Source of the DNA: Guillardia theta CCMP2712 | Lineage: Eukaryota; Protista; Cryptophyta | Direction: 5' to 3' | Assembly: GCF_000315625.1 (NCBI RefSeq) | Contig: NW_005434656.1 | Coordinates: 293,741-357,740, forward strand | DNA: 64,000 nucleotides | Part shown: positions 8,694 through 36,000 of the stretch, one piece after another | How positions within the stretch are numbered: position 1 is the first letter of the stretch | Layout of the letters: each line of letters opens with the position of its first letter | Program-made: the position numbers and the translations under genes | Notes under the pieces: generated by a model | Seen by the model: only the letters and a program-made list of their open reading frames with translations | Database searches by the model: none | What the model was told of the DNA's origin: nothing

Positions 8694-10047
8694 GATCAGT
8701 GTTCTGAGGGAAATTTCTCTTCTTAGTTCACTTCACTTCATCCCATCCATTCGCAGAATCAAGCCTCGGAGGCGAGCGGCTCAAACTTCGAATCCGACCA
8801 GTCTCTAGGTTTTTACCCGTGCCACTGTTCGAGCCACTGCGGCGACGCGCCCGTCACCGGGCGTCACAGCAGTTGCAGCACTATGAGACTGACTCAGTGA
8901 GCTTGAAGAGGCTCCGAAGCCTTGGAGGCTGAGCCAGTGGTCTCCGATACCAGCCGCTGGTGCTTCGCTTCCCTCCTTGTGCCGCAGTGCCAGTACTGAG
9001 GCTGCCTCCCCAGGCTTTATATTGCTACCAGCGCGATTGTCCTACGGTACTGACAGTGATGTTTAACTTAACTTTGACTAAAGAAGCTACTCAGTGACTA
9101 GCAGCGGGTTTCAAGTTTGACCGCCGCCGGGCCGAGTCTGTCAACTTCCGAACTTCCGCCCCTGGGGCCGCTGCCATGATTTTAAAAGTCCGATCATAGC
9201 CTAGTGACTCAGAAGCGGCAGCTCAGTCAGGCTCGCCGAGGCTCCGGGCCCGGGGCGCCCGCCGCGCCGGGTCCGGGTGACTCTCGACCGCGGTACCGTA
9301 CCGTCCGGACGGTCTACCGTACGGCGACCCGGTCCGACGGTCACCGGCAAGTCGGACTCCCGAGCCAAAGGCCGGGCCGCCGCGACACTGATGTCAAGTC
9401 ACCGTAGACGGTAGGCTTGAAATCCGACTCTAGTGATCGACGGCAGTATCCGACATCAGAAACTTGATCATACGAGTCAGCCAGGCATTGGACGGACTGT
9501 ACGCCATCTTCACAAAATCTCACTGAATGGATCTATTTTCAGCCTGACAACAGCCAAACATGGACGCTTCAACCTTATAGTGATGATCTCATTGTCTTGC
9601 AGGACTAGTATTGTGCCAGGAATGTAGGTTATCTTGGATCGACACAAGGCAATTTGACCCCGGCCCGGTGAGTCTGTTCTCTCTGTTGAACCATATCAAG
9701 TTTATTTCACCATGTTTGGCTGCCATCGCCAAAAAACTTTCAATACGTCACATCACTGCCTTTTGCGTGAGATGCGTGCTTACAAACAATTCATTGTTGA
9801 CGTCTGCAGCCTGCAAACTTCGGGCTTTAAGTGTCATTAAGGGCTCTAAAATACAAGGCCTAAACTTCTACTATGATACAAATGAGACGGCAAGGAATAA
9901 TTCTGTTGCGTATTATTGTGCCCTTTACCTGTATTTGATTCATCATCAACGCCCAACCGATCCGCCAGGTTTCAAGACAGCTCGATAGGGAATGGTAGGT
10001 AGTCATGTAAAACCATCGTGCTGCATTTTTCGCCTCGAATTCAATCT

Positions 10048-10271
10048 GCGCTCATCTCCATCATGTGGCCGCGCTCATCTCCATCATGTGACCGCGCTCA
10101 TCTCCATCATGTGGCCGCGCTCATCTCCATCATGTGGCCGCGCTCATCTCCATCATGTGGCCGCGCTCATCTCCATCATGTGGCCGCGCTCATCTCCATC
10201 ATGTGGCCGCGCTCATCTCCATCATGTGGCCGCGCTCATCTCCATCATGTGGCCGCGCTCATCTGTATCAT
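10048..10271 (+). repeat. 23-bp tandem repeat GCGCTCATCTCCATCATGTGGCC, 9 full copies plus a partial
   Basis: Units start at 10048, 10071, 10094 ... 10255; one G>A variant in copy 2. Confidence 0.95.
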
Positions 10272-10577: not shown

Positions 10578-10953
10578 TCGTTTCGGATTGTTGCCCCTCC
10601 TCCCTCGACTTCTTAGCTCCTAGTGTAAGGGTTGAAACCGGCTATAGGTTAACGTAGATTGGTCCGTCATGTTCACATGCTTGCATCGTTTCGGATTGTT
10701 GCCCCTCCTCCCTCGACTTCTTAGCTCCTAGTGTAAGGGTTGAATCTGATGCAGATAAACGTAGATTGGTCCGTCATGTTCACATGCTTGCATCGTTTCG
10801 GATTGTTGCCCCCTCCCCCTCGACTTCTTAGCTCCTAGTGTAAGGGTTGAAACCGGCTATAGGTTAACGTAGATTGGTCCGTCATGTTCACATGCTTGCA
10901 TCGTTTCGGATTGTTGCCCCTCCTCCCTCGACTTCTTAGCTCCTAGTGTAAGG
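10578..10953 (+). repeat. ~108-bp tandem repeat, 3.5 copies, with an alternating 13-14 nt variable segment (A,B,A)
   Basis: Units start at 10578, 10686, 10793 and 10901. Between GTTGAA and AACGTAGATTGG the segment reads ACCGGCTATAGGTT / TCTGATGCAGATA / ACCGGCTATAGGTT. Unit 4 stops at ...CCTAGTGTAAGG (10953). Confidence 0.95.
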
Positions 10954-11232
10954 CACGGGGGAGGAACTCCCAATAAAAGGGTCTAGTACCGGTATTTTTA
11001 TGATATTTTGGGGGTACCTTTTCAGGAGGGGGTGGGTGAGTTTGCAGGAAATCGCAATGGCAGCAAGGCGGCGACCAGGTTTAAGGATGATTTACTCAGC
11101 CTGTGCAATGATGACAATCGTGAAACCACCATAGCCTTTCAGGAAATTGTAAAATCTATATCATGGTATCAATCATTTGAATTGCATCGTAGCAGTGTTT
11201 AATATTTTCCACAATACGTATCTCTCTTTTTT

Positions 11233-14200
11233 CTACTTGCAGCCAGCAATGCTACGCAATCCCCGGAACCGTTGCATATTACCTGTTAATCCTTCATCCC
11301 ATTGCCCTGATTTAGCATATACTCGCTTTCGATTGTTCTTCTGCGTACTATTGTCTGGCTCCACATCATGATCAGATCCATCCCGTGCATTGAAAGCTTC
11401 ACGGTCGTGCGGTTTGCTCAGGACAATTCGCTTCTTCGAATGCTCGTACACAAAAGGCAGGTTTGGATCCACCTTTTTAGATAATTCTATGCATGCCTGA
11501 TTGAATTTTCTCAGAAAATCCTTCTTGTTCAGATGGCCGATCAAGGACCACAGATTCTCTACACTATCCGTGCAGAGAGTTCGTGAATTGAAGTCATAGT
11601 CTCTATCACCCAGCGCATGATTCTTATCCCTCACATACTGTTGTACTTGCAGATGAGTATCAATTGCAACTATGAAGCCTTCAAATGTTACAGATGATAG
11701 TCCCTTGACATGTTTTTGGCTGACACTGGTCCAGTCGATGCCTTCCAATAGCCATCTTCGACCCTCTTGAACGAGACGTATCCTCTCTGAAACTTTCAGC
11801 CCTCTTTCATCGAATGCTTTGTGCAGGCCAGACATGGCCTCTGCCATTCTTGCTGTCGCTTCATGTCCTTCTGCCCTTAGTAGACTGATGGCCTTGTCAC
11901 TGAACATCTTCAGCATGATATCCACCGATTGTGGATCGGCGGTCCCGTCGACTTCCATCTGAGTCATCCAAGCAGGATTCTTCTTGGCGATATCACTGTA
12001 AGCTTTATGCCATATCTGGGCTTCCGTAGAAGACGATTGAGACTTCCCTGATCCAATGGAATGCCTGACATTCTTCAACAAGTGATTGATGCACGGCGAG
12101 AAAAACAACAACTTGTTCGTAATTGGAGAGAGGACGGGATTGGATAACCATTCGTCGAATTTAAAGCGGATCTTGTGTTCATCAAAGTCATTTAGTCCAT
12201 CAGCTATTCTTCGCTCCATCTCCCAAGGAGTGAATGTTTCCCCCCCCCTCTTCATTGTGCTTGGCCAATGAAAGAACTTCTTCATATCCGTACCGTCTGC
12301 AAAATATTTGAAACCTGCAAAACATCTCTTTCAGGGTCGCTCTGGGCCTCTTGCTCGTGTGGCATCGTAGCGTCTTCTCCTTCTGAACTTGCCATATGGC
12401 CTGGTTCTGTCGTAACTGCAAAACAAACTGTTTGATTTCTCTCATTTCAGCAACATCCATGTGTACAATTCCTTGCTGAGGTGTGATGGGCAATGACGAC
12501 AAGTCATCACCATCGTACTCATCTGGATGGTCCAATGTGCACTCACTCTCAATGTCGTGCTCTGAAATTGGAGGTTCGAACTTGAATATCCCCGAAATGT
12601 ATGCTGAAATAGATGTACATAAATGTCTATATTCCATACTGGTTGCAGTCTTGTTAATGGCCTTCACTTCCTGAATGAATGTACTTGGCTTGTCTTGGTA
12701 GAAATAACGATATATACAGGCGAACTCCCCATCGAAAGACCACACATTGAAGTTCACGCCTCTCTTCCAAGCTTCATTGGTGACAGCTAAAAAAATATCC
12801 TTTCCATCTTTGGAACACAAACTTTTATGGGCAAAGCCGATGTAAACAGGCGCAGGAGGCATATGCTTTTGTCCATCCTGTGCAACAACACATATTGCAT
12901 CTTCTGCTAGTTCGGCGATCGCCGTCTTGTAGTACAAGTCATTGTATACATTTAATTCATCTTGAATTGAACGCTGCTCGTCCTCGCTTGGTGTGGCGGT
13001 ACTGATGTAGTTGTTCAGACGATCAATCAGTTGCGGCACTTGAGTTTGGATCTGACTACATCCCTCAATGACCCCGGCCATGTACAATTGATGTGGCGTA
13101 AACCTGACTTCATTAGAGACATTCCTTCTCGTATCTGCGTTGTTGCTAATCATTTTTGCAACATACTTATCACGAATTTTCTTGTAGTCCCGTTCAGTCG
13201 TTGATTTCCTTTCATTGATGTGATCCAAGTCAGTTTTCAATAAGCCTATCACATGCTCCCGAATCGATTCAGCGGTTGTTCCCTCCAAACAAAGCTGTGC
13301 CAACCGTCTCTGTCGCATCTCAAGCCGTTCACACAAATCCATTGTTTTCCCCGTGACTCCACCTAAATCTGCTTCGCAGTCTTCGAACTGTTTACAAAAC
13401 CCAGCATTGATCATCGTCTTGTCCATCGCCAACACATGAATACCATCTACAAGGTTAAAATTCATTTCACCGTAATCATGCAAAACCTCGCTGCAGATTC
13501 TTGACTTGTTTAGATCACGTGTCTTCATGTCTGCACTCTGCAGCTTATGAAGAGTAGATATGGACGGTAGAGGCAAGTTATGCAAAGCCTGATCAGAATG
13601 GAAGTTTCTCGTATACTTGTTCCCTGGACCTGACAGTAAACGGAACGTACTCCCGTCGCAAGCATTGAGAATTGTTGATGCGAAACTCAAAACCTCCGGA
13701 GAGAATCTCATGCCCCTCGAATCTTTCGCTCTGAAGCTCTGTTGACACCAATCCATGACGAGGTAAGGCATGATTCTATGTGTGCTTTTGAAAGCTTGGA
13801 TGTCGTTTCTGGCAAAGATTACTAACTCCGAAAGTATATCCGGCAATCCAGCAGAATGCAGATTTGAAACAGCATTTTCGAATTTACATATCGCAGATAG
13901 CTCATGCTCTGTATTCTTGTCATGTGTTTGACACAGAGAGTCGTGTTCACTCAAAATCCTTCTAATCATGTCACATCGGGTGTGGCTGTCAAGGGTTCTA
14001 AAAGTTTCAAGGACTGTCTGAATGAACAGTTCGGATTGCGCCTTGGCATGTTTGTTTGGAAGACTCTCACTTGTGTCAACATGTTCATCCGACATTCTTG
14101 CATACCTGTACAATGAACGTCAGGTCACTGGCATGGAAAGAAAGCAACATCTCAGACTTACTTCACAAAGTAATCGTGTATAGTAGTTTGCAATGAATTC

Positions 14201-14656
14201 AAATTCTCGAAGTGAGCAGTAGACCATTCTTCCATGCGAGAAAGAAGGTTTCGATTCTTCCTGTGAACGTTGCCAATACGTGTACGAAGTCGATTCAAGT
14301 GCTCATAAATGGCCTTTGTGCCTCCATGTGATTTGCCAGATGCTTGTTGTTCGAAAACCTGCATGTAGTGCTGGAGAAAACATCTCGAAAATCCTTCTGA
14401 TGTAGGCCCATAGACATCTCCGAGGACCTTTAGTTTGTTCTGGACTTCATACAAGGATACAGAACGAAGACTCCACTTGAGGTAATGGGTCACTGAAACT
14501 AAAAGATTCTCGTCTTCACACTCCACAGATAAAGTTGAATGGCCATGACATTGCAAGAAATCCAACAGCTTGAAAACCAAGGCATCATCCCATTGAGAGA
14601 GCAGGATCTGCTCAAGATCATTGCAATCCTTGTTTTTTTTCAACCCTCCAAATCAT
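11233..14656 (-). CDS. P-element/THAP9-like DDE transposase (~1120 aa when reconstructed; one intron and two +1 homopolymer frameshifts)
   Basis: Motifs VLAMDKTMI (D at 13421-13423), WSFDGE (D at 12731-12733), FFSPCINHLLKNVRH (C/DxxH-LLKNxR), DPQSV..KMFS, and RTLCTDSVENLWS (E at 11557-11559). Intron 14106-14161 (GTAAGT...CTGAC...TACAG) joins ORF 14158-14643 in frame to ORF 12200-14113. Removing one base from the A8 run (14633-14640) and one from the G9 run (12240-12248) gives an open 3366-nt CDS from ATG 14656. Confidence 0.7.
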
Positions 14657-15608
14657 CCTTGTCTATAGTGATGTGTTTAATAAATTGTATCCACGTCGAT
14701 GTATCACCCAGGGTGTTTTCATTCCTATATGCAATATTCTCGTAGACCCACATCCAATTGACAAAGATCGGGGTTCTGTATTCATCTCCAAGGTTATCTG
14801 TCTCTTCTTTGTAGGTTTTTAGTAGAATCTGTTTCACCTTTTCGTAGGCCTCGCTAGGTTCCTTTTTATTGTTTGCATATTGATCCAAATCACATTCGGT
14901 TGGATATTCTTCCAAATCTGTTTCGGTAACTTGGGACAGTGCATCCGATGACGCATCAATAGATTCCGTTACACCCGTGTCTGTCTCGGTGGACACGGAT
15001 TCCGTTTCATCGTATTCACGCGTCAGGCTCTTGAACCTCCTTTCGAGGTCTGATATGCTGATTTCTCTATTGAAAGACGGTGTGCTCTGATCTGCGTCCT
15101 CGACAAGTTTCATCCCCCTGTCCAACCTCTTCTTGTGCGCCATAAAGTGTACCTTGACATGTCTGATGTTCTTCATGCAGGATATGAGGAAGGGGACGAT
15201 GCTGTCTGGATCGCTGTGGTCTATGCTGATGTTCGAACAACCCTCAATGTACTTTGCCACAAGCTTCTCCATCATCACCTTCCTAAGGCACTCATCGGAC
15301 AAGTTCTTGATGGGTTCGGCCTTGGGTTGTGAGCACATTCTCTCCGCCTGTTTCCATTCCTGTGGGGTGATGGAGAATGCGGATCTTGCCTTTACATCCT
15401 TTCCAAGCACGCGGAAGGGCATCTTGAACGTGCCAAGAACCTTGATCTCCTTCACATGCCCCTCCAATGCAGCCCTATCAACGTGACTTATGTCTAGCGA
15501 TGGTGCTTTCTCAATCGCACTCCTCAACCCCGCCTCCATGCTGTTGCTTTTCCTATCATTCATCGCTCTTGTTAAGGGATACGGCGATGGATTTAAATGA
15601 CAAGACAA
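14640..15608 (-). CDS. Hypothetical 322-aa protein of the inserted element (acidic central tract)
   Basis: Intronless ORF from an ATG; abuts its neighbours. Confidence 0.7.
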   Translation of the reverse strand: MSCHLNPSPYPLTRAMNDRKSNSMEAGLRSAIEKAPSLDISHVDRAALEGHVKEIKVLGTFKMPFRVLGKDVKARSAFSITPQEWKQAERMCSQPKAEPIKNLSDECLRKVMMEKLVAKYIEGCSNISIDHSDPDSIVPFLISCMKNIRHVKVHFMAHKKRLDRGMKLVEDADQSTPSFNREISISDLERRFKSLTREYDETESVSTETDTGVTESIDASSDALSQVTETDLEEYPTECDLDQYANNKKEPSEAYEKVKQILLKTYKEETDNLGDEYRTPIFVNWMWVYENIAYRNENTLGDTSTWIQFIKHITIDKDDLEG

Positions 15609-15625
15609 TGTCTACAATCATGAAC

Positions 15626-16325
15626 CTACCTACGCTCTGGTATCTGTACTGTAAGCAACCTAGACATGCAAAAGGGGTCCTGATTGATCCTGACTATGTG
15701 GTCCACATCGTGTGGCACGCTCATCCGAAGTTGATCAAACTTAGAGATCACGCTCTTTTCAAACCCCACCCATTGGATGGAGTATACCGGGTTCAACCTC
15801 TTTGTATCGCACTTGGAAAGCAGTAGCTTGTAACGTTCAAATGGATGCGTGTCGAACAGGTAAACAGATTCCATCAAGACTGCATCGAATATCAAGATCT
15901 TGGGAATGTACTTGTCGATCGTGACTTGATCCTCCGTATAGTGTGCCAGTACGCATGAATCCATGGGGAGTGCGTTATTAAGCATTATGTCGGCCTGTGA
16001 AAGGTAAACCTTGCCGTGCAGGCCAATGAGAGTGAATCCATTCTTGTCCGTGTATAGGCTGAATGTGACCCGATTCTTTGGTAACCAAGTTGCAGTGTGT
16101 TCCTTTCTATCGTCTTCACATCGTTTAAAAGGCTTGTTATCGATCTCAATAACCCTTGTCAACTCCAACGGGATATTGAATATGTGCGACATTTCTGCAA
16201 GGCACATGTTCACAATAAACCGATCCAACATGCCTGAATCCATGTGTGAAAGTCGAAAGCTGTCATGCAAGCCTTTGTTTATATCAAAACCAAAAAAAAA
16301 CAACAGCTGTATTTAAGCGAATCAT
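15626..16325 (-). CDS. Nucleotidyltransferase-fold (mRNA capping guanylyltransferase/snurportin-like) protein lacking the KxDG catalytic motif
   Basis: KILIFDAVLMESVYLFDTHPFERYKLL resembles the motif IIIa...ER segment of capping enzymes/ligases. Removing one base from the T9 run (16292-16300) extends the ORF to ATG 16325 (699 nt). Confidence 0.5.
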
Positions 16326-16352
16326 GACGAAACATTGTTTGAGAAAGTCGAG

Positions 16353-17672
16353 ATGTCGGATAGCTCCTGGCCTATACAGACCTTTAAAGTCTTATCGTTG
16401 TTGACGAACCTTATCGCCCCCATCTTGAAGTCGTTGGGTATCTTCTTTCCTCAAATCGAGGTGTTGAAGAACTGCAGTCCATCGGCAGTTAAGACATGGA
16501 ACTTCTTTGCATGCCGTCGTGGTATCACCGGTGGTTTTTCACTTTCCAGTATCTTCTTCTCGACACTGGAGGGTTATAGCTACCATGCAAGTGCCGTGTA
16601 CGGTATTCACTTCGCCGCAATACTTTCATTGCTTTTCTTCCTTTACATGACAAGGGATGCTGACAAACTCCTTGATGTCTGCTACAACATCAACTTCATC
16701 AACGTAGTCAATGCGTTATTTGTCATTTTTGACATGTATTTTGGCTATGACCACGAAGTAGGGATTCAGAGTTCTTTCTTTGGATTTATCGTGTGTGATT
16801 TAATATGCCAGATTATCATCACTGCACTGATCGTTTACGTACTCCGTGAAGTTGCCCCAGATCTGGGGAGTTTGAAATCGGATAACCCCAACAAGCAATA
16901 TTACATCAACACTTTCCTGTACCGGATGGGACCAAACCCTTCTTTATGGATGCTGGTGAACGCCATTAGCATGCAATTGGTTTACTTGTGTACCGGGCAT
17001 GATGTATCGTTGCTTATACTTCGCATGGTATGTGTCGCTCTGTGCTACCTATCCATGTTCAAGTTCAGGATGTTCTTTTTCTATATGCAATATTCAGGTC
17101 ATCAATCCGAGTACGTTTCCCTCATGCACTGGCGAGATGTCGTCAAAGCATTCAAAAATACCACCAAACATTTCAATATCATAATGGAAGATGATTTCAG
17201 GAAGGATAGGATTGAAAAGTTCTTCGGTAATATAAATTCGCCTTTCTACGTGATCATCAATGCAAATATAACTACAGCCAATTGCACCGTTCTGAATCCT
17301 GATGAGATGATCCTCATGGCCATGTACTGGGATAATATGGAACAGTTCAGGAAAACGTTCCAAGACGCGGAATTATTCATCCAAGGACTTAAGACTGGAA
17401 CTGCTGCAAACGGTGGGAGGGGGTTCATTATAAAGACGCGTGAGAAAATTGAAGAGAAGAATAAGTCAAACATAATCTATTACCCAACTGAATTCACACA
17501 TATGCATACCGTGCGTGAGTTTCAGCTCAAAAAGGTTCCGACGACGTTTGACTATGAAAAGCATGGGGATAGTATCAAAAAATCTCCGACTGTACTCAAC
17601 TACATGTTCATTGCGCAAATGATGGGATCGGAACAGACTCGAAAGATAAGGAGTAGCAAAGGTGCAATCTGA
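16353..17672 (+). CDS. Multi-pass membrane protein (~6-7 hydrophobic segments) with soluble C-terminal domain, element-encoded
   Basis: Intronless ORF 16335-17672, first ATG at 16353; hydrophobic stretches such as GIHFAAILSLLFFLYM, FFGFIVCDLICQIIITALIVYVL and SLLILRMVCVALCYL. Confidence 0.7.
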   Translation: MSDSSWPIQTFKVLSLLTNLIAPILKSLGIFFPQIEVLKNCSPSAVKTWNFFACRRGITGGFSLSSIFFSTLEGYSYHASAVYGIHFAAILSLLFFLYMTRDADKLLDVCYNINFINVVNALFVIFDMYFGYDHEVGIQSSFFGFIVCDLICQIIITALIVYVLREVAPDLGSLKSDNPNKQYYINTFLYRMGPNPSLWMLVNAISMQLVYLCTGHDVSLLILRMVCVALCYLSMFKFRMFFFYMQYSGHQSEYVSLMHWRDVVKAFKNTTKHFNIIMEDDFRKDRIEKFFGNINSPFYVIINANITTANCTVLNPDEMILMAMYWDNMEQFRKTFQDAELFIQGLKTGTAANGGRGFIIKTREKIEEKNKSNIIYYPTEFTHMHTVREFQLKKVPTTFDYEKHGDSIKKSPTVLNYMFIAQMMGSEQTRKIRSSKGAI

Positions 17673-17785
17673 GTGTAAGAAAACACCCAGATCCTTGAGT
17701 TATCAATAAACGTCCGAATCTAACACATACGTGCCTAAAAACTATTTGAATATAATGTTCATTGAACGAGACAAAGTAGATATAG

Positions 17786-18163
17786 ATGTCAGTGAAGCTG
17801 TTATTATCAAATCAGCTAGATATTGTGAAGCATGATGATCAGATTATAGTGGAGAACGTTGCGAGTGTCATCCTGAGTCTTGGGAAAGAGTATGCCTTCC
17901 ATGACTTTGACATAAAGAAACACGATAGTGGATATGTTATGAGTGTAAAGACATCCCCGCACGCAAGCATATCCCTTGTAGACATGCAACTTATCAAAGA
18001 CTGCAACCCAATAAGGGTTCAAGACGTGTACGTGAATGTTATCGAAGGTGTGATTCGTGTGAATGTGATCATATTGAATTCAGGCATACCCGTTGTGATC
18101 ACGGATACCGACGTGATAAGGGTCAAGAAGAGGAAGATATGGAATATATTTCAGCGGGCATAG
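17786..18163 (+). CDS. Hypothetical 125-aa protein with C-terminal basic (KKRK) NLS-like patch
   Basis: ATG-initiated intronless ORF in the compact block. Confidence 0.65.
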   Translation: MSVKLLLSNQLDIVKHDDQIIVENVASVILSLGKEYAFHDFDIKKHDSGYVMSVKTSPHASISLVDMQLIKDCNPIRVQDVYVNVIEGVIRVNVIILNSGIPVVITDTDVIRVKKRKIWNIFQRA

Positions 18164-18171
18164 TCTATTCA

Positions 18172-18411
18172 TTACAATCTGTCCACCTTTAAGGCTGGGT
18201 TGTGACGTATAGATTTGGGCGGTGTTTTAGATCGAAATCGTTCAATGACCTCTACAACCTCCATCTTCATGTTCCTCCATGGGCAAGGGCATAGATCGTC
18301 CACTGCACATGGCTTTCTTTGCAACGGGCAGTAAATGCATCTTTTGGATTTAGGGTATACCCTACCAAAGACGTTCTGAACGCTTCTGCTTATCTTTTCG
18401 TAGGGTGACAT
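18172..18411 (-). CDS. Small basic Cys-containing hypothetical protein (79 aa)
   Basis: ATG ORF filling the gap between its neighbours; CIYC..C..CPC motif. Confidence 0.5.
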   Translation of the reverse strand: MSPYEKISRSVQNVFGRVYPKSKRCIYCPLQRKPCAVDDLCPCPWRNMKMEVVEVIERFRSKTPPKSIRHNPALKVDRL

Positions 18412-18439
18412 GCCTTGCTATCGAGGGGTCGTTGCGGTC

Positions 18440-19450
18440 TTAGTACTTTATATCGACACTAGTAAAACCCATGACATCTATCTCCTTATTGGTCAAATTA
18501 CGTATGCACATCTTAATAAGATTTTCAACCTCGGTGATGAACTTACACTTTATCTTAAAATAGCATTTCAGGTGGGCCTCGATGGGCAGCAGGTGCTGTA
18601 GCTCGTGTATCTTGGGTAGGAGTATAACGTTTTGCATGGTGATGCCCATTCTCATCAGGTATACGATCCCTATGAAGAGCACGTTTTTCTTGAACATCCC
18701 AAGCTGTGTACTGAACTTCTGTGACAACATATTCAAGAATCGGACAATGTATTCTGAAGCGGTGGAAGCAACGGATCTGCGCATCTCTTCGTCCCATTCG
18801 GGATAACAGATCCTTATCTTGCTACATTGGTGCAACATGTTGGTGACTATGTTGCAAAGCCTCGGTACTTTTCCTGGATTATTGATCTTGAAATCTTTTA
18901 AAAGTTTCCACATCACTTGCCTGTGCTTGAGCATCATTCTATTCTTTTCGTTCATGTAACTCTTCTTACAAACATCGGATGACAATATCCATACAAGGCA
19001 TTTATTCACTTCATCGAAACTGTAAAGACTATCCTCCACTGTTTTCTGTGACATGACCTTGTTGTAAAAGTCCCTGTTGCTCACGTTTGAGACCAAGATG
19101 TCTTCATCTAGCATCATATTATCCATGAATTCATCCATTGGGAACACCTTCTGTTTGACACAACACCCTGTAATGAAGCATACACGGCTATCGTTCTCAT
19201 CGATAAGGTCACAGCTACTTTCATCTTTGCAATTATGGACTTCACCACATTCCAAGCATCCTGCAAGATCCATATCGAATATGTCCCAATGGCTGCACTT
19301 GTGTCCACAAAGACCCCTGGGTATAACGAATGGGCATCTTATCATCCTCCATATCCTAACCCTGTGGTCAAGTTCTACCCTCTTCTTGTAATACTTGCTA
19401 TCCGCTTTGGGTCTGAATTGAAACGCGGGCTTAAGATTCGTTACACTCAT
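18440..19450 (-). CDS. Herpesvirus UL92/ORF31-like zinc-binding late-transcription-factor-like protein (336 aa)
   Basis: GCLECGEVHNCKDESSCDLIDENDSRVCFITG matches the CxxCxxxHxCxxxxxC-x10-VCxxTG spacing recalled for HCMV UL92/KSHV ORF31. Confidence 0.6.
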   Translation of the reverse strand: MSVTNLKPAFQFRPKADSKYYKKRVELDHRVRIWRMIRCPFVIPRGLCGHKCSHWDIFDMDLAGCLECGEVHNCKDESSCDLIDENDSRVCFITGCCVKQKVFPMDEFMDNMMLDEDILVSNVSNRDFYNKVMSQKTVEDSLYSFDEVNKCLVWILSSDVCKKSYMNEKNRMMLKHRQVMWKLLKDFKINNPGKVPRLCNIVTNMLHQCSKIRICYPEWDEEMRRSVASTASEYIVRFLNMLSQKFSTQLGMFKKNVLFIGIVYLMRMGITMQNVILLPKIHELQHLLPIEAHLKCYFKIKCKFITEVENLIKMCIRNLTNKEIDVMGFTSVDIKY

Positions 19451-19524
19451 ACTGCAATGCCCCCCTTCGGTAGATTAGTTTTTATTGTTTAAAATCACAA
19501 ATCAAAAAAGGATTGCTCTTTAAA

Positions 19525-21573
19525 TCACCCGGTTGTCATGATCCTTCTCTTTTTACCACACCTCCTTCTACTTTCCCTGGATCTATCATAGTTGACACAG
19601 GCACGGGCGAGGTCCTTGATGTCGATCACAAACTTCATGATGTACCTTGGGAGCATGTGTTTCATGCATAAGTAGAGCTGTATGTGAACCCCGTACTTTG
19701 CGTTCAATACCACCACCCTCTCAAGGTTTGATGTCTTCCCACACCTTATACACTCCTTGCAGCATGCCCTTCCATTCTTGATTAGGGTAGAGTTTGTGTC
19801 CGATGCCTCGAACTTGAAGTAACTTGACTTGCTCGACTTCCTATTCTTTATGTCATTGTAATAACCACCATGGTCACTGCTCGACATTTTGAGTATGGAG
19901 CTGAGTGAAGTCCCTATCCTTGGGTTCGAATAATGATTGGCGAACTCACATGGCTTCGTGAACTCATTTCCGGTATGGTTCCATCTCTTGAAGGTGCCGC
20001 AACATGGGCAGAGTATGTAGCTAGCGCCCTGTATGACGAGTATCTTGCCAAGCATGTTGACGCTTATGATAGAGTTATGAAGCCCACAGGAAGCACAGCG
20101 CAACTGGTTGGTCTGCATACATAGTCTGAGTTTCGATGAGACGGTAAAGCCATTGAGTTTGTTGCAGCACTTCATGCAGATGTGGACCTTCATCATGTTC
20201 TCCATTTGGAAATGGTCCGAGCTATATCTCTTTAGTATTGCAGAGCATTGCATCGCTGTAAGGTTACATGGAAGCGGATACACCTTACATCTAGAATGCA
20301 AGTGGTCTATGATGTTGAATTCTTCCACGGTTATGTTCGGGTTGTCACGGTGATAGATTTTCCAGAGCAGGCCATTGATATTCACAGGGTTCATGGATTT
20401 TGCTGCATCGAAGAGATGGTCCATATCATCCGTAATTCTCCTCCATTTTACCACGACCTCCTTGGATGGTGCATGTCTGCCAGACCTGAACTTACATGTC
20501 CTGACACATCGATCCACACACACAGTGGCGACTTCATCCAATCTATCCCACGTCCAATCTCCACTCTGTAGGGTCTCTTGTCGGAATGCATCGGCGACAT
20601 TGGGACAGATGTCAAAAAACGTCTGCATGCCTTGTACAGAACAAATGATCTCCTTCTCCGACACTATGAATGTGTTGCATGCATACCAGACGTACTCCAT
20701 GATCGACAACTTTAAAAGATTGAGGTTTGAATAGATGAACCTTGCCTGCTCTTGTAATGGTCTTGTCATCATCGATCTTAACTCACTCGCGCATCGCACC
20801 CTCTGTTCGAATGATGGCCTCTTCGCAGTATTGGGATACAAGCCAAGCAGGAGCCCGTGCATTATGTTGACTAGAACAGGTGTAGAAGGGTCAACAAAAA
20901 GCTCCTCTGCAAGAAAGGCGACCCTGTTCCTCTTCAAGCACGGGATACTGTTGCATATCACATTCAATATGAGGTTTGACTTCCAGTCCTTCTGTATGAG
21001 ACTTTGTGATATGAATCTTCCGATATCTGGTAGGGTGGAATGGTGGTAGGTGATACTAGGATGTAGCAACCTTGCATCGTTTGGTATGCGGTTGTATAGA
21101 TCTGGGAACTTCTTGGCGATCCAACAAGATATCAGGCTTCTATCAATCATCACTTGTGCATCGCGGATCCCGTGCTTAAGGTCTTCGTGTGTCTTCCTGA
21201 TGTAATGATCCAGCACCGGATCTTCTGGCCTGAATAGCGTTTGAATAGCTAAATCGCAACGTTTCGACATCTCGGTAAAAGCCGACGACCCGCCCGCAGA
21301 CAGGGCGTTCCACACCGCGTTAACATGGCGTGAGCATGCTCGCCCGACCTCCTTGTCGTGTACCTTGGCCTCCCCATCTGACTGACAACATGACGTCAAC
21401 ACCCATCCTGTCAGAAAAGACTCGTGCAAGTATGCAAGCATGAGCGTACCCTGACTCTTTATAATCGGTTCTCGTCGCTCGTTGAACATCACTGAAACAG
21501 CAATATTTTGATGATGACTGCTTCCCTGTTGTGTGCTCAATGAGGACAATGGCTCTGAGATTCTGAATGACAT
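19525..21573 (-). CDS. Herpesvirus UL49/ORF66-like Cys-rich late-transcription-factor-like protein (682 aa)
   Basis: C-terminal CMKCCNKLNG...CMQTNQLRCASCG...CPCCG...CIRCG resembles the CxxCGxxLN..CxxTxxxxCSxCG zinc-binding region recalled for HCMV UL49/KSHV ORF66; basic C-terminal tail RRRCGKKRR. Confidence 0.5.
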   Translation of the reverse strand: MSFRISEPLSSLSTQQGSSHHQNIAVSVMFNERREPIIKSQGTLMLAYLHESFLTGWVLTSCCQSDGEAKVHDKEVGRACSRHVNAVWNALSAGGSSAFTEMSKRCDLAIQTLFRPEDPVLDHYIRKTHEDLKHGIRDAQVMIDRSLISCWIAKKFPDLYNRIPNDARLLHPSITYHHSTLPDIGRFISQSLIQKDWKSNLILNVICNSIPCLKRNRVAFLAEELFVDPSTPVLVNIMHGLLLGLYPNTAKRPSFEQRVRCASELRSMMTRPLQEQARFIYSNLNLLKLSIMEYVWYACNTFIVSEKEIICSVQGMQTFFDICPNVADAFRQETLQSGDWTWDRLDEVATVCVDRCVRTCKFRSGRHAPSKEVVVKWRRITDDMDHLFDAAKSMNPVNINGLLWKIYHRDNPNITVEEFNIIDHLHSRCKVYPLPCNLTAMQCSAILKRYSSDHFQMENMMKVHICMKCCNKLNGFTVSSKLRLCMQTNQLRCASCGLHNSIISVNMLGKILVIQGASYILCPCCGTFKRWNHTGNEFTKPCEFANHYSNPRIGTSLSSILKMSSSDHGGYYNDIKNRKSSKSSYFKFEASDTNSTLIKNGRACCKECIRCGKTSNLERVVVLNAKYGVHIQLYLCMKHMLPRYIMKFVIDIKDLARACVNYDRSRESRRRCGKKRRIMTTG

Positions 21574-22167
21574 CGTTTACTTGAACATATGGCCACATAC
21601 AGAACGTTTTCACAGTAACATACATAGGTTGAAGAAAAAGCAGAGGTAAAGCGGAAATTGCAACGGGCAAACGTCGCTGCTTTCTGAGAATCAGTGTGTC
21701 AAGCTATGCAGATTCCAGTGAATTGCTCATTGGAAAGCGTGCATTGGAACCGCAAATCCTAAATGGAAGACCCAGACATCGAGAACATTCGCTGGAAGTG
21801 ACGAAGTTCATGCAATAAAAGACTACCGTTTCATGTTGTTGATGTTCTGCATGACTGCATCAGGCATACCACATGAGAGAATCATGCAATATACGTGATG
21901 CTGGAACCTCATACAAGTGTAGCATGACCTTTGCATGCGAATCCGATCTTCATTCTGTCCTCATTGCATGTCTACCTCATGAACTTGAATGCATCGGTGG
22001 AACAAATTCCTAACAGTTCAAAAAAAGAGTGGGTTGTGGTACAAATTGATAACTGGAGTCTTGAACTGGGATCACCTATGGATTTAACCTAGATCTTAAC
22101 CCCTTTCTCCAGGTTAACTAAAGTGGGCACACTACGCTACGCTATTCAGAAGGTCATCCATAAAACC

Positions 22168-22223
22168 CCTAGTGTAAGGGTTGAAACTGATGCAGATGAA
22201 CGTAGATTGGTCCGTCATGTTCA
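22168..22223 (+). repeat. Distal half-copy of the 108-bp repeat (B-type variable segment)
   Basis: CCTAGTGTAAGGGTTGAA-ACTGATGCAGATG-AACGTAGATTGGTCCGTCATGTTCA matches 10727-10782 with two substitutions. Confidence 0.9.
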
Positions 22224-22907
22224 ACTTTCAAGGACATATAGGACACGGTTCCGACTTCAAACTGAAGCCTAAAAGTTCCCCCCGCCGCCGGCCGCGCGGC
22301 GCGCGCCGGCCGCGGCCCGACTCGCGACTCCGGCCTGAGTCTTTACTCAAAGTTAAGTTGGCCAGTCCGACGGTCCGACCGGTCACTCGCCCAGGGCGCC
22401 CGGCGCCGGGGACTCGACTGAGTCGGAGGGCCCGGCTTTAAGCCGGGCCGCGGCAGCCAAGTTAAGTGTGAAGGTGATGCCGATCAGTTAAGTTGGGGGA
22501 CAGCACTGCACAGTAAAAGGGCTCGTACTGTTTTTAACTTAAATTTGAGTAAAGTTTTAGTACAGTGATGCGACTTTGCCTAGTTTACATCTTTCGGAGG
22601 GCTCCAAGTTTTACGCCCCCAGGCGGGACGGTCGCATTTCAACTTTTTTGAAAAACAATAAAAACGAGCATAAAACAATCGACAGAAGGGGGACGTTTAA
22701 TACAGCTCAATAAATACCGGAAATCTGCATTAAACAAAGGTGATCGGGAAGCTCGCATGTGTGGAATGAATGTTGACTGAAACTGCGATTGACAATAAAG
22801 AATAGATAATGTCGATATTCTATTGGACATTTGTAGTAAGCAATAAAAAGTTCACATCCCCGCAACTTGTAGATTCCTCATTCCAGGGGAACGTGAGTAG
22901 AAGCGGC

Positions 22908-27056: not shown

Positions 27057-30000
27057 CTACATGATATTGTCTGGGAGAGTCTCAGACTCGCATGCTGTGA
27101 TCTCCCCATGAGCCAGGACTGTCAACGTGGTTTCCTCCTCCTTGAACAGTGATTGCTCCGCATCTTCTTCTCCTCTGTACTGCTGTAACTCGTGGACGTC
27201 GTTAGGCGTCTCGTTCTGGTTGTAATACAATCCTCGGCCCTCACTGTCTTTGTACTCCTTCCAGCTGACCAGATTGCGGGCGCTTGTTGCCTTGTAAAAC
27301 TCGCCCTGGCTGTGATCATGAGCTCTCATGCCCGGCAGAGGGATAGAGAAGGCGCTCGTCATGGTGACGTCATCATCCGAGACGATCTTGAGGCAATGAT
27401 CAAAGCCCAAGTGTGACGTTGTCTGAAGGAGCTCTGTGTTCTGTGTAGAGAAGGGCAACGCCATGTCCGGGTCGAGCTGACGTAGAGACGACGTCTGGTC
27501 ATCCTGACTTGTCCGTTGCTGAGTTTGGTTGAAAAGCGAGAAGTGGCGAAAACCAAATACCCCCAGCCCGAACGTGAGCAATGAGAGTGAGGCAGCAAAG
27601 ATCATGCCATCTGTCAGCATTCTTTGAGATTTCTCTGGAGTCGTTGAAGCAGAAATTATCATGATCAGTGATGTGTCATTGAACGAGGCCATGGCTGTCC
27701 CGTTCAACGAGGCAATCGCAGTCCCGTTCGACGTAGCAAAAGCTGTTGAGGAATTGTACTCAATAGATGCATTGGGAATTGGAAGATGAGATGACGTCCG
27801 GGTAACAACACAAGATGATAAGTTTGAATCTGGAAACGAGCCTGTAGGACACGCCGTACACGAAGTCGAGCCCGCGCTGCCCTGCACATACCCTGCTGGA
27901 CACTCCATACACTGAGACGACCCGGTCGTGTTCTGATAGGCGCAAAGTCAGCAAGCAGCAAGCTAGCAGGTGGCAGACGCCTTGCTTTGACCTGATACGA
28001 GCCTGCAGGACACGCCGTACACGAAGTCGAGCCCGCGCTGCCCTGCACATACCCTGCTGGACACTCCATACACTGAGACGACCCGGTCGTGTTCTGATAG
28101 GCGCAAAGTCAGCAAGCAGCAAGCTAGCAGGTGGCAGACGCCTTGCTTTGACCTGATACGAGCCTGCAGGACACGCCGTACACGAAGTCGAGCCCGCGCT
28201 GCCCTGCACATACCCTGCTGGACACTCCATACACTGAGACGACCCGGTCGTGTTCTGATAGGCGCATAGTCAGCAAGCAGCAAGCTAGCAGGTGGCAGAC
28301 GCCTTGCTTTGACCTGATACGAGCCTGCAGGACACGCCGTACACGAAGTCGAGCCCGCGCTGCCCTGCACATACCCTGCTGGACACTCCATACACTGAGA
28401 CGACCCGGTCGTGTTCTGATAGGCGCAAAGTCAGCAAGCAGCAAGCTAGCAGGTGGCAGACGCCTTGCTTTGACCTGATACGAGCCTGCAGGACACGCCG
28501 TACACGAAGTCGAGCCCGCGCTGCCCTGCACATACCCTGCTGGACACTCCATACACTGAGACGACCCGGTCGTGTTCTGATAGGCGCAAAGTCAGCAAGC
28601 AGCAAGCTAGCAGGTGGCAGACGCCTTGCTTTGACCTGATACGAGCCTGCAGGACACGCCGTACACGAAGTCGAGCCCGCGCTGCCCTGCACATACCCTG
28701 CTGGACACTCCATACACTGAGACGACCCGGTCGTGTTCTGATAGGCGCAAAGTCAGCAAGCAGCAAGCTAGCAGGTGGCAGACGCCTTGCTTTGACCTGA
28801 TACGAGCCTGCAGGACACGCCGTACACGAAGTCGAGCCCGCGCTGCCCTGCACATACCCTGCTGGACACTCCATACACTGAGACGACCCGGTCGTGTTCT
28901 GATAGGCGCAAAGTCAGCAAGCAGCAAGCTAGCAGGTGGCAGACGCCTTGCTTTGACCTGATACGAGCCTGCAGGACACGCCGTACACGAAAGTCGAGCC
29001 CGCGCTGCCCTGCACATACCCTGCTGGACACTCCATACACTGAGACGACCCGGTCGTGTTCTGATAGGGCGCAAAGTCAGCAAGCAGCAAGCTAGCAGGT
29101 GGCAGACGCCTTGCTTTGACCTGATACGAGCCTGCAGGACACGCCCGTACACGAAGTCGAGCCCGCGCTGCCCTGCACATACCCTGCTGGACACTCCATA
29201 CACTGAGACGACCCGGTCGCGTTCTGATAGGCGCCCCAAAGTTCGGTGGTTTTCAGCAAAAGGGCAGCCAAAAAGCTAAAGCAAAGGTGGCAGACGCCTT
29301 GCTTTGGGTGGCAGACCGCCCTGTGATACGAGCCTGCAAGGAACACCTGCCGGGCCACGCCGTACACGAAGTCGAGCCCGCGCTGCCCTGCACATACCCC
29401 TGCTGGACACTCCATACACTGAGACGACCCGGTCGTGTTCTGATAGGCGCAAAGTCAGCAAGCAGCAAGCTAGCAGGTGGCAGACGCCTTGCTTTGACCT
29501 GATACGAGCCTGCAGGACACGCCGTACACGAAGTCGAGCCCGCGCTGCCCTGCACATACCCTGCTGGACACTCCATACACTGAGACGACCCGGTCGTGTT
29601 CTGATAGGCGCAAAGTCAGCAAGCAGCAAGCTAGCAGGTGGCAGACGCCTTGCTTTGACCTGATACGAGCCTGCAGGACACGCCGTACACGAAGTCGAGC
29701 CCGCGCTGCCCTGCACATACCCTGCTGGACACTCCATACACTGAGACGACCCGGTCGTGTTCTGATAGGCGCAAAGTCAGCAAGCAGCAAGCTAGCAGGT
29801 GGCAGACGCCTTGCTTTGACCTGATACGAGCCTGCAGGACACGCCGTACACGAAGTCGAGCCCGCGCTGCCCTGCACATACCCTGCTGGACACTCCATAC
29901 ACTGAGACGACCCGGTCGTGTTCTGATAGGCGCAAAGTCAGCAAGCAGCAAGCTAGCAGGTGGCAGACGCCTTGCTTTGACCTGATACGAGCCTGCAGGA

Positions 30001-33000
30001 CACGCCGTACACGAAGTCGAGCCCGCGCTGCCCTGCACATACCCTGCTGGACACTCCATACACTGAGACGACCCGGTCGTGTTCTGATAGGCGCATAGTC
30101 AGCAAGCAGCAAGCTAGCAGGTGGCAGACGCCTTGCTTTGACCTGATACGAGCCTGCAGGACACGCCGTACACGAAGTCGAGCCCGCGCTGCCCTGCACA
30201 TACCCTGCTGGACACTCCATACACTGAGACGACCCGGTCGTGTTCTGATAGGCGCAAAGTCAGCAAGCAGCAAGCTAGCAGGTGGCAGACGCCTTGCTTT
30301 GACCTGATACGAGCCTGCAGGACACGCCGTACACGAAGTCGAGCCCGCGCTGCCCTGCACATACCCTGCTGGACACTCCATACACTGAGACGACCCGGTC
30401 GTGTTCTGATAGGCGCAAAGTCAGCAAGCAGCAAGCTAGCAGGTGGCAGACGCCTTGCTTTGACCTGATACGAGCCTGCAGGACACGCCGTACACGAAGT
30501 CGAGCCCGCGCTGCCCTGCACATACCCTGCTGGACACTCCATACACTGAGACGACCCGGTCGTGTTCTGATAGGCGCAAAGTCAGCAAGCAGCAAGCTAG
30601 CAGGTGGCAGACGCCTTGCTTTGACCTGATACGAGCCTGCAGGACACGCCGTACACGAAGTCGAGCCCGCGCTGCCCTGCACATACCCCTGCTGGACACT
30701 TCCATACACTGAGACGACCCGGTCGTGTTCTGATAGGCGAAAAGTCAGCAAGCAGCAAGCTAGCAGGTGGCAGACGCCTTGCTTTGACCTGATACGAGCC
30801 TGCAGGACACGCCGTACACGAAGTCGAGCCCGCGCTGCCCTGCACATACCCTGCTGGACACTCCATACACTGAGACGACCCGGTCGTGTTCTGATAGGCG
30901 CAAAGTCAGCAAGCAGCAAGCTAGCAGGTGGCAGACGCCTTGCTTTGACCTGATACGAGCCTGCAGGACACGCCGTACACGAAGTCGAGCCCGCGCTGCC
31001 CTGCACATACCCTGCTGGACACTCCATACACTGAGACGACCCGGTCGTGTTCTGATAGGCGCAAAGTCAGCAAGCAGCAAGCTAGCAGGTGGCAGACGCC
31101 TTGCTTTGACCTGATACGAGCCTGCAGGACACGCCGTACACGAAGTCGAGCCCGCGCTGCCCTGCACATACCCTGCTGGACACTCCATACACTGAGACGA
31201 CCCGGTCGTGTTCTGATAGGCGCAAAGTCAGCAAGCAGCAAGCTAGCAGGTGGCAGACGCCTTGCTTTGACCTGATACGAGCCTGCAGGACACGCCGTAC
31301 ACGAAGTCGAGCCCGCGCTGCCCTGCACATACCCTGCTGGACACTCCATACACTGAGACGACCCGGTCGTGTTCTGATAGGCGCAAAGTCAGCAAGCAGC
31401 AAGCTAGCAGGTGGCAGACGCCTTGCTTTGACCTGATACGAGCCTGCAGGACACGCCGTACACGAAGTCGAGCCCGCGCTGCCCTGCACATACCCTGCTG
31501 GACACTCCATACACTGAGACGACCCGGTCGTGTTCTGATAGGCGCAAAGTCAGCAAGCAGCAAGCTAGCAGGTGGCAGACGCCTTGCTTTGACCTGATAC
31601 GAGCCTGCAGGACACGCCGTACACGAAGTCGAGCCCGCGCTGCCCTGCACATACCCTGCTGGACACTCCATACACTGAGACGACCCGGTCGTGTTCTGAT
31701 AGGCGCAAAGTCAGCAAGCAGCAAGCTAGCAGGTGGCAGACGCCTTGCTTTGACCTGATACGAGCCTGCAGGACACGCCGTACACGAAGTCGAGCCCGCG
31801 CTGCCCTGCACATACCCTGCTGGACACTCCATACACTGAGACGACCCGGTCGTGTTCTGATAGGCGCAAAGTCAGCAAGCAGCAAGCTAGCAGGTGGCAG
31901 ACGCCTTGCTTTGACCTGATACGAGCCTGCAGGACACGCCGTACACGAAGTCGAGCCCGCGCTGCCCTGCACATACCCTGCTGGACACTCCATACACTGA
32001 GACGACCCGGTCGTGTTCTGATAGGCGCAAAGTCAGCAAGCAGCAAGCTAGCAGGTGGCAGACGCCTTGCTTTGACCTGATACGAGCCTGCAGGACACGC
32101 CGTACACGAAGTCGAGCCCGCGCTGCCCTGCACATACCCTGCTGGACACTCCATACACTGAGACGACCCGGTCGTGTTCTGATAGGCGCAAAGTCAGCAA
32201 GCAGCAAGCTAGCAGGTGGCAGACGCCTTGCTTTGACCTGATACGAGCCTGCAGGACACGCCGTACACGAAGTCGAGCCCGCGCTGCCCTGCACATACCC
32301 TGCTGGACACTCCATACACTGAGACGACCCGGTCGTGTTCTGATAGGCGCAAAGTCAGCAAGCAGCAAGCTAGCAGGTGGCAGACGCCTTGCTTTGACCT
32401 GATACGAGCCTGCAGGACACGCCGTACACGAAGTCGAGCCCGCGCTGCCCTGCACATACCCTGCTGGACACTCCATACACTGAGACGACCCGGTCGTGTT
32501 CTGATAGGCGCAAAGTCAGCAAGCAGCAAGCTAGCAGGTGGCAGACGCCTTGCTTTGACCTGATACGAGCCTGCAGGACACGCCGTACACGAAGTCGAGC
32601 CCGCGCTGCCCTGCACATACCCTGCTGGACACTCCATACACTGAGACGACCCGGTCGTGTTCTGATAGGCGCAAAGTCAGCAAGCAGCAAGCTAGCAGGT
32701 GGCAGACGCCTTGCTTTGACCTGATACGAGCCTGCAGGACACGCCGTACACGAAGTCGAGCCCGCGCTGCCCTGCACATACCCTGCTGGACACTCCATAC
32801 ACTGAGACGACCCGGTCGTGTTCTGATAGGCGCAAAGTCAGCAAGCAGCAAGCTAGCAGTGGCAGACGCCTTGCTTTGACCTGATACGAGCCTGCAGGAC
32901 ACGCCGTACACGAAGTCGAGCCCGCGCTGCCCTGCACATACCCTGCTGGACACTCCATACACTGAGACGACCCGGTCGTGTTCTGATAGGCGCAAAGTCA

Positions 33001-36000
33001 GCAAGCAGCAAGCTAGCAGGTGGCAGACGCCTTGCTTTGACCTGATACGAGCCTGCAGGACACGCCGTACACGAAGTCGAGCCCGCGCTGCCCTGCACAT
33101 ACCCTGCTGGACACTCCATACACTGAGACGACCCGGTCGTGTTCTGATAGGCGCAAAGTCAGCAAGCAGCAAGCTAGCAGGTGGCAGACGCCTTGCTTTG
33201 ACCTGATACGAGCCTGCAGGACACGCCGTACACGAAGTCGAGCCCGCGCTGCCCTGCACATACCCTGCTGGACACTCCATACACTGAGACGACCCGGTCG
33301 TGTTCTGATAGGCGCAAAGTCAGCAAGCAGCAAGCTAGCAGGTGGCAGACGCCTTGCTTTGACCTGATACGAGCCTGCAGGACACGCCGTACACGAAGTC
33401 GAGCCCGCGCTGCCCTGCACATACCCTGCTGGACACTCCATACACTGAGACGACCCGGTCGTGTTCTGATAGGCGCAAAGTCAGCAAGCAGCAAGCTAGC
33501 AGGTGGCAGACGCCTTGCTTTGACCTGATACGAGCCTGCAGGACACGCCGTACACGAAGTCGAGCCCGCGCTGCCCTGCACATACCCTGCTGGACACTCC
33601 ATACACTGAGACGACCCGGTCGTGTTCTGATAGGCGCAAAGTCAGCAAGCAGCAAGCTAGCAGGTGGCAGACGCCTTGCTTTGACCTGATACGAGCCTGC
33701 AGGACACGCCGTACACGAAGTCGAGCCCGCGCTGCCCTGCACATACCCTGCTGGACACTCCATACACTGAGACGACCCGGTCGTGTTCTGATAGGCGCAA
33801 AGTCAGCAAGCAGCAAGCTAGCAGGTGGCAGACGCCTTGCTTTGACCTGATACGAGCCTGCAGGACACGCCGTACACGAAGTCGAGCCCGCGCTGCCCTG
33901 CACATACCCTGCTGGACACTCCATACACTGAGACGACCCGGTCGTGTTCTGATAGGCGCAAAGTCAGCAAGCAGCAAGCTAGCAGGTGGCAGACGCCTTG
34001 CTTTGACCTGATACGAGCCTGCAGGACACGCCGTACACGAAGTCGAGCCCGCGCTGCCCTGCACATACCCTGCTGGACACTCCATACACTGAGACGACCC
34101 GGTCGTGTTCTGATAGGCGCAAAGTCAGCAAGCAGCAAGCTAGCAGGTGGCAGACGCCTTGCTTTGACCTGATACGAGCCTGCAGGACACGCCGTACACG
34201 AAGTCGAGCCCGCGCTGCCCTGCACATACCCTGCTGGACACTCCATACACTGAGACGACCCGGTCGTGTTCTGATAGGCGCAAAGTCAGCAAGCAGCAAG
34301 CTAGCAGGTGGCAGACGCCTTGCTTTGACCTGATACGAGCCTGCAGGACACGCCGTACACGAAGTCGAGCCCGCGCTGCCCTGCACATACCCTGCTGGAC
34401 ACTCCATACACTGAGACGACCCGGTCGTGTTCTGATAGGCGCAAAGTCAGCAAGCAGCAAGCTAGCAGGTGGCAGACGCCTTGCTTTGACCTGATACGAG
34501 CCTGCAGGACACGCCGTACACGAAGTCGAGCCCGCGCTGCCCTGCACATACCCTGCTGGACACTCCATACACTGAGACGACCCGGTCGTGTTCTGATAGG
34601 CGCAAAGTCAGCAAGCAGCAAGCTAGCAGGTGGCAGACGCCTTGCTTTGACCTGATACGAGCCTGCAGGACACGCCGTACACGAAGTCGAGCCCGCGCTG
34701 CCCTGCACATACCCTGCTGGACACTCCATACACTGAGACGACCCGGTCGTGTTCTGGTAGGCGCAAAGTCAGCAAGCAGCAAGCTAGCAGGTGGCAGACG
34801 CCTTGCTTTGACCTGATACGAGCCTGTAGGACACGCCGTACACGAAGTCGAGCCCGCGCTGCCCTGCACATACCCTGCTGGACACTCCATACACTGAGAC
34901 GACCCGGTCGTGTTCTGACAGGCGCAAAGTCAGCAAGCAGCAAGCTAGCAGGTGGCAGACGCCTTGCTTTTGACCCTGATACGAGCCTGCAGGGACACGC
35001 CGTACACGAAAGTCGAGCCCCGCGCTGCCCTGCACATACCCTGCTGGACACTCCATAACACTGAGACGACCCGTCGTGTTCTGATAGGCGCAAAGTCAGC
35101 AAAGCAGCAAGCTAGCAGGTGGCAGACGCCTTGCTTTTGACACTGTATACGGAGGCACTGCAAGGATCACGCACGGTACAACAGAAGTCGGGAGCACCGC
35201 GCGTGCCACTGCACATACCCTGCTGGGACACTCCATACACTGAGACGACCCGGTCGTGTTCTGATAGGCGCAAAGTCAGCAAGCAGCAAGCTAGCAGGTG
35301 GCAGACGCCTTGCTTTGACCTGATACGAGCATGCAGGACACGCCGTACACGATGTCGAGCCCGCGCTGCCCTGCACATACCCTGCTGGACACTCCATACA
35401 CTCAGACGACCCGGTCGTGTTCTGATAGGCGCAAAGTCAGCAAGCAGCAAGCTAGCAGGTGTCAGACGCATTGCTTTGACCTGATACGAGCCTGCAGGAC
35501 ACGCCGTACACGAAGTCGAGCCCGCGCTGCCCTGCACATACCCTGCTGGACACTCCATACACTGAGACGACCCGGTCGTGTTCTGATAGGCGCAAAGTCA
35601 GCAAGCAGCAAGCTAGCATGTGGCAGACGCCTTGCTTTGACCTGATACGAGCCTGCAGGACACGCCGTACACGAAGTCGAGCCCGCGCTGCCCTGCACAT
35701 ACCCTGCTGGACACTCCATACACTGAGACGACCCGGTCGTGTTCTGATAGGCGCAAAGTCAGCAAGCAGCAAGCTAGCAGGTGGCAGACGCCTTGCTTTG
35801 ACCTGATACGAGCCTGCAGGACACGCCGTACACGAAGTCGAGCCCGCGCTGCCCTGCACATACCCTGCTGGACACTCCATACACTGAGACGACCCGGTCG
35901 TGTTCTGATAGGCGCAAAGTCAGCAAGCAGCAAGCTAGCAGGTGGCAGACGCCTTGCTTTGACCTGATACGAGCCTGCAGGACACGCCGTACACGAAGTC

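Follow-up and report, generated by a model that had tools for sequence, protein, structure and literature searches.

A 64,000-nucleotide stretch of the Guillardia theta genome (the window) raises the question of how a large insert came to divide the fourth unit of a host tandem repeat, with the same 12 bases at either junction. The first-pass annotation proposed either a long target site duplication (TSD) made by an atypical transposon without terminal inverted repeats (TIRs), or the integration of a circle at an att core within the repeat. The reading preferred here, which we hold to be probable, is a multi-copy P-like transposon of G. theta that entered unit 4 by a cut-and-paste mechanism with a TSD of 7–8 bp, and that bears a 6.6-kb block captured from a mirusvirus. 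No description of this element was found in the open literature; Repbase and subscription papers lay outside the search.

A host repeat divided in its fourth unit

The 108-bp tandem units of the host array begin at 10578, 10686, 10793 and 10901. Their variable segments run A, B, A, the first and third being the same, and the array extends over 10578..10953, up to base 53 of unit 4. The rest of unit 4 is found at 22180..22223 (forward strand). These 44 bases past the right junction form a B-type segment with 2 mismatches to B, scoring 42 against B compared to 36 against A; unit 4 is 10 bases short, and similarity to the unit stops at 22223. The match between the junctions (10942..10953 and 22168..22179, forward strand) is exactly 12 bases long, with no rightward extension. 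This 12-mer has a chance probability of about 5e-8 per site and occurs five times in the window: once in each of the four units and once at the right junction. The split repeat and the junction match bear out the earlier description of a real insertion into unit 4 of an A, B, A, B′ array, with 12 identical bases at both junctions and the B segment resuming on the right.

Contigs of four runs were aligned to 10901–22900, and of four to 10880–11010; runs X1 and X2 represent one sample, which may be the source of the assembly. It is very improbable that misassembly produced the arrangement, or that the 108-bp unit is a terminal repeat belonging to the element. Such a view draws on the absence of any single record spanning the whole element, on multi-copy depth that continues to 22359, and on one X2 contig that joins the unique left flank directly to the half unit and the element; this contig, which skips units 1–3, is most simply an assembler collapse. 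It is opposed by an X1 contig that crosses the right junction (22124–22900) with 0 differences, by contigs crossing the left junction in all four runs, none with 31 letters on each side (best 53/29 and 30/57), and by an X6 contig (19519–21503) that bridges the internal boundary at 21227. Intact A and B units are present in X1, X3 and X6, and the repeat is missing at the left ends of other copies, as described below. A contig joint between 22223 and 10901 represents an intact B unit, not an empty site. Neither an empty-site joint nor a circle joint was found among the 12 joints listed, from contigs, which lose rare forms.

Other repeated sequences are present in the window. Contigs with loose ends at 22359 (6 contigs) and at 22537 indicate that a separate repeat of the host adjoins the right junction, GC-rich blocks occupy 22224–22560 and 9100–9400, and a 23-bp tandem array of 9.7 copies (10048–10271) lies 300 bases to the left of the 108-bp array. 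A 161-bp tandem array at 27836–38885 has about 68 units that are 97–99% alike, with a Cys-rich coding piece in each. Two nearly identical frames of about 940 aa (38514–41339, reverse strand, and 47470–50316, forward strand) are inverted, each entering a 161-bp unit, and the sequence flanking both is also duplicated.

The transposase and its dispersed copies

The left arm of the element carries a transposase on the reverse strand. The C-terminal frame (11233..12330) contains a C-x2-H motif and the catalytic Glu, and the central frame (12200..14119) the first two catalytic Asp residues. A short frame in the multi-copy arm (14158..14652) is probably part of the N-terminus, judging by its match to a deleted derivative, P0035. 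In the window copy the C-terminal frame is out of register with the upstream part at a run of C near 12240, and the break is real, since two transcript-derived proteins end alike. The sister frames P0020 and P0024, each of 845 aa, are intact and 98.6% alike, and the central ORF is 98–99% identical to G. theta proteins. Intact sister copies would supply the transposase in trans to the window copy.

The fold predicted for P0020 (pLDDT 68.8) resembles that of the Drosophila P transposase (6p5a) with a Z score of 28.7 and an rmsd of 4.6 over 382 aligned positions. The next structural matches were Hermes (Z 10.4) and RAG/Transib (Z 9.2–9.8). With Foldseek the P transposase ranked first at an E value of 1.3e-3, above 0.001, and sequence searches of the PDB detected no P relationship. 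A search with the C-terminal frame retrieved 78 relatives. In an alignment of 47 rows, with 46 relatives, the columns that hold D117, D347, C560-x2-H563 and E738 are conserved; the P superfamily is marked by three catalytic residues (D, D and E) together with a (D/C)-x2-H motif. The enzyme is thus predicted to be P-element-like with a DDE fold of the P type, and the relatedness to P elements suggested earlier is upheld by the fold match and the catalytic motifs together. Elements of the Transib/RAG kind have CAC ends and a 5-bp TSD; such an identity was rejected on the Z scores of 9.2–9.8 versus 28.7 for P.

Accessory domains are less uniform among the relatives. A YqaJ domain is present in 11 of the 29 long relatives scanned, and the Pfam domain TNP-like_RNaseH_N was matched in two. 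No THAP domain was matched in Pfam, the short frame that is probably part of the N-terminus included.

RNA reads of run X21 are high over the left arm, where they are mostly spliced antisense RNA, and near zero over the cargo. The antisense RNA covers the 3′ part of the transposase gene (11063..11911, forward strand), with GT..AG joints represented by 65 and 10 X21 reads and one X6 contig, and could come from any copy. It is abundant, starts near 11047–11067, and is possibly a silencing or regulatory RNA.

The transposase gene was found on eight G. theta scaffolds, two at 66% and six at 94% or above, the latter measuring 936,637, 467,170, 1,289,241, 464,095, 14,700 and 442,853 bases. The 936,637-base scaffold also bears the cargo gene and is possibly the window's own source. 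Copies are dispersed, with variable left flanks and internal deletions such as that with a joint at 12466–14245. Sequencing depth over 10901–14900 and 21300–22360 is 3–6 times that of the middle, and other copies part from this one at 14603 or 14645 and match it again from 21227. Depth and loose contig ends thus delimit a multi-copy left arm (10954..14645) and a multi-copy right arm (21227..22171) around a low-copy block (14646..21226).

Element ends and the length of the target duplication

It had been noted that no convincing TIRs are visible, and this was confirmed: none rose above shuffled sequence at 60, 100, 150 or 300 bases from the ends, the best local end alignments being equalled by 145–927 of 1000 shuffles. 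Because canonical TIRs are absent, the element is filed as P-like and not as a canonical P element. The P end consensus CANRG did not occur in the papers listed, and four matches to a pattern of 17 bases from the ends appear to be chance occurrences.

The left end was located from other copies. Nine rows listed, comprising 16 contig entries from three runs, enter the element at 10950–10957 from flanks that disagree with one another, and neither the 108-bp repeat nor the 12-base core was found in any of these nine flanks. The core thus does not behave as a constant att site, the repeat is not carried at the left ends of other copies as a terminal repeat would be, and the idea that insertion is aimed at the 108-bp repeat finds no support there. 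Contigs entering at 10953 have G10953 in common, which places the left end at 10953 or 10954; the shared G favors 10953, the start under a 7-bp TSD, over 10954. Many contigs diverge at 10993–10999, after the common first 40–45 bases of the left end, suggesting that short non-autonomous relatives exist.

These results bear directly on the proposal that a site-specific recombinase integrated a circle into the repeat through a 12-bp att core, which is now largely refuted and hardly credible. The quasi-palindromic core, the lack of TIRs and the viral genes inside the element would suit it. No recombinase family, including the tyrosine and serine recombinases, was matched in Pfam or PHROG, with 10 ORFs of the element scanned by Pfam. 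The transposase fold is predicted to be of the DDE P type, the core is missing from the other left ends among the rows listed, and the joints listed include no circle joint, with the loss of rare forms from contigs noted above.

The right end is less sharply defined. An X3 contig begins at 22142, and a 30-base overlap, as seen at the left end, would end at 22171, so that other sequence would part from the element at 22172, alternative causes of the break being possible; X1, unlike X3, breaks at 22124. A single X6 contig tracks the element to 22175 and then departs. Sequence past 22167 is common to copies in two runs (4 bases in X3, 8 in X6), which makes it probable that the element's own end supplies some of the 12-mer. 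The right terminus is most likely 22171, within a range of about 22169–22175. Contrary to the earlier claim, the 12-mer therefore does not pin the insertion to base precision.

Splits of the 12-mer at any length between 3 and 12 bases all restore unit 4. Only an 8-base model (10954–22171) and a 7-base model (10953–22171) fit the X3 break exactly. The true target duplication is likely 7–8 bp, with 3–9 bp possible, and the rest of the match is probably the last bases of the element. The last 7–8 bases of the left copy would then be the duplicated target, and in the right copy the first 4 bases are likely the element end and the remainder the duplication. Such lengths are familiar: P target duplications are given as 8 bp (PMC7776569), those of 1360 and Galileo as 7 bp, and those of the repleta-group P/BuT5 elements, which have 3-bp TIRs, as 8–9 bp (PMC3698922). 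The last three bases of P are described as matching the bases that flank the TSD in a 14-bp target motif (PMC2577343), a precedent for an apparent duplication that is longer than the real one.

A true 12-bp TSD made by an atypical, TIR-less P-like element is quite improbable. It would require no coincidence between host and element at this locus, the CC...GG symmetry of the core would agree with it, and other left flanks have G at the last position. It is disfavored by the 4 bases (X3) and 8 bases (X6) shared beyond 22167, X3 breaking at 22172 and not at 22168 and the X6 contig continuing to 22175; in addition, CC is not in register in the consensus of left flanks, and the TSDs described for the P superfamily are 7–9 bp (PMC3698922).

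Less improbable, yet still unlikely, is an element ending at 22174 or 22175 that made a 3–5-bp duplication in a target that already repeated 7–8 bases of its right end. The X6 contig, exact to 22175, and the G10953 common to entering contigs agree with this, and under a 5-bp model the ends form a perfect 3-base TIR with 6 of 12 matches. The X3 break at 22172 speaks against it, and it requires a match with a probability of 6e-5 to 4e-6 unless such targeting is real; the left end shows no match to the other side of the target, and the fold is P-like, with RAG/Transib at a Z of only 9–10.

Once the X6 contig is counted and flanks are taken as random, each of the nine boundary models that were scored depends on a coincidence of 2e-7 to 4e-6. 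Either some target preference or likeness of end and target is therefore real, or the one contig from X6 is misleading. Some non-random match of the element end to its target is left over. Under the preferred cut-and-paste reading, a staggered cut of 7–8 bases in unit 4 would have let the element in, and the 12-bp duplication that drew attention to the locus is itself probably ordinary.

The cargo block and its comparison with known systems

The block between the arms is virus-like, about 6.6 kb long (14646..21226, left edge at 14603–14645), with dense long ORFs and a flat, low depth. On the reverse strand are ORFs of 322 aa (14640..15608) and 225 aa (15626..16303), and on the forward strand one of 445 aa (16335..17672) with a hydrophobic N-terminal half; no family was found for these three, and none matched any of 2007 frames from 30 metagenomic loci. 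Next to them are a 125-aa ORF (17786..18163, forward strand), an 81-aa frame (18172..18417, reverse strand), a UL92/ORF31-like gene (18440..19450, reverse strand; PF03048, E 1.2e-6), and a Cys-rich gene of 682 aa (19525..21573, reverse strand). A search with the 682-aa protein gave 18 matches including itself, and the alignment starts only at about residue 116, which corresponds to 21227. Since its homology begins at the block boundary, the gene was cut at the block edge. No capsid or polymerase was recognized among the seven cargo ORFs. Suspected likenesses of the 682-aa protein to UL49 and of the 225-aa protein to a capping-enzyme domain were unsupported.

Relatives of the cargo were sought in metagenomes, where a scan yielded 30 loci (263 kb) out of 171 candidates. 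One locus, L001, contains homologues of the 682-aa, UL92-like, 81-aa (E 1.9e-7) and 125-aa (E 1.9e-30) genes, whose order and relative orientation are those of the cargo. A second, L002, has homologues of the 682-aa and UL92-like genes. On L001 only, a heliorhodopsin gene (13305–14600, E 3e-12) lies between the homologues of the 81-aa and 125-aa genes; the 445-aa ORF did not match its positional counterpart there. Neither the transposase nor an element end was found in the 263 kb of the 30 loci, and no conserved fusion was seen. A viral contig collection yielded no relatives of the cargo gene, of its alignment, of the capsid candidate described below or of the transposase.

UL92/ORF31-like genes, which also occur in herpesviruses, are described as a mirusvirus core cluster present in 66.7% of mirusvirus MAGs and 0% of nucleocytoviruses (PMC10132985), and heliorhodopsin as enriched in mirusviruses, at 64% versus 5% (PMC10132985). 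Capsid, triplex 2 and protease genes of mirusvirus type have been catalogued in G. theta (PMC10827195). The syntenic loci also carry a large neighboring gene of 1011–1230 aa with 864 homologues, conserved at its ends and variable in the middle; one homologue is in Hanusia, and others are on contigs equal in size to those of the closest relatives of the cargo gene. This pattern is like that described for the floor-and-tower capsid, and the protein is from its sequence a candidate for the HK97-fold major capsid protein of the source virus. It had no match in the PDB, Pfam, PHROG or the Atlas, the model of the L001 protein has a pLDDT of 28, and a match to huntingtin was of low complexity. Taken together, the cargo is likely of mirusvirus origin.

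Positions 1–16435 of L001, together with the proteins P0009, P0015 and P0153, probably represent a freshwater mirusvirus block, with genes for the large conserved protein, proteins of 309 and 282 aa, the UL92-like protein and heliorhodopsin. Proteins of Hanusia phi match the same block. In the window, 5–12% of sampled words from 12300–22223 are present in four freshwater or aquatic metagenomes.

Excision-gap repair in P elements can involve template switching. The viral block was likely copied in by such a switch while an excision gap was repaired, a process that would also account for the internally deleted copies. Nuclear replication has been predicted for many mirusviruses (PMC12768974). 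Relative to a 2-kb contig of the right flank, the depth of the cargo is 1.1–1.2 times in X1 and 1.5 times in X3, a measure of depth and not of copy number, compatible with capture before or after insertion here.

Mirusvirus genes are reported in many protist genomes, that of G. theta included (PMC10827195), and no integration route was found in the literature consulted. A fragment that is cut mid-gene and flanked by the arms of a transposon with a recent spread suggests gap repair of transposons as one way to endogenization, which could be tested in a cultured alga that has intact transposase copies. A bolder reading, offered as doubtful, has a TIR-less P-like transposon choosing targets similar to its own right end and carrying mirusvirus DNA through the host genome as a single unit; on a small scale this would be a Teratorn-like way for integrase-less mirusvirus genes to become endogenous in algae.

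As in the endogenous cryptophyte sequences of mirusvirus clade E03, mirusvirus-like genes with a UL92-like core gene are found here in the same host; unlike those sequences as described, the fragment lies inside a transposon with defined ends (PMC10827195). Introners in viruses (PMC12166617) are a different matter. The element resembles members of the P superfamily (Drosophila P, 1360, Galileo and the repleta-group P/BuT5) in its predicted transposase fold, catalytic motifs, internally deleted copies and likely 7–9-bp TSD; very short TIRs are known in repleta P, and end bases that restore the target motif in P. It differs from them in having no detected TIR of 13–31 bp or sub-TIR, no THAP match, long helical insertions, a cryptophyte host and a viral cargo of 6.6 kb, and from many of its own distant relatives in lacking a YqaJ domain. 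P-like elements with almost no TIR are thereby extended to cryptophytes.

Like a Pack-MULE, the window copy is non-autonomous and holds a foreign fragment between intact arms. Pack-MULEs are mostly 1–2 kb (PMC6431247); here the cargo is viral and larger, and the transposase gene is still present. In Teratorn, a piggyBac-herpesvirus fusion of 41–182 kb, multi-copy and with intact replication and virion genes (PMC6431247; PMC5601938), the ends and transposase of a DDE transposon likewise surround herpes-related virus genes. The G. theta element has a P-type enzyme and a truncated 6.6-kb fragment without capsid or polymerase, and its likeness to Teratorn is one of outline only.
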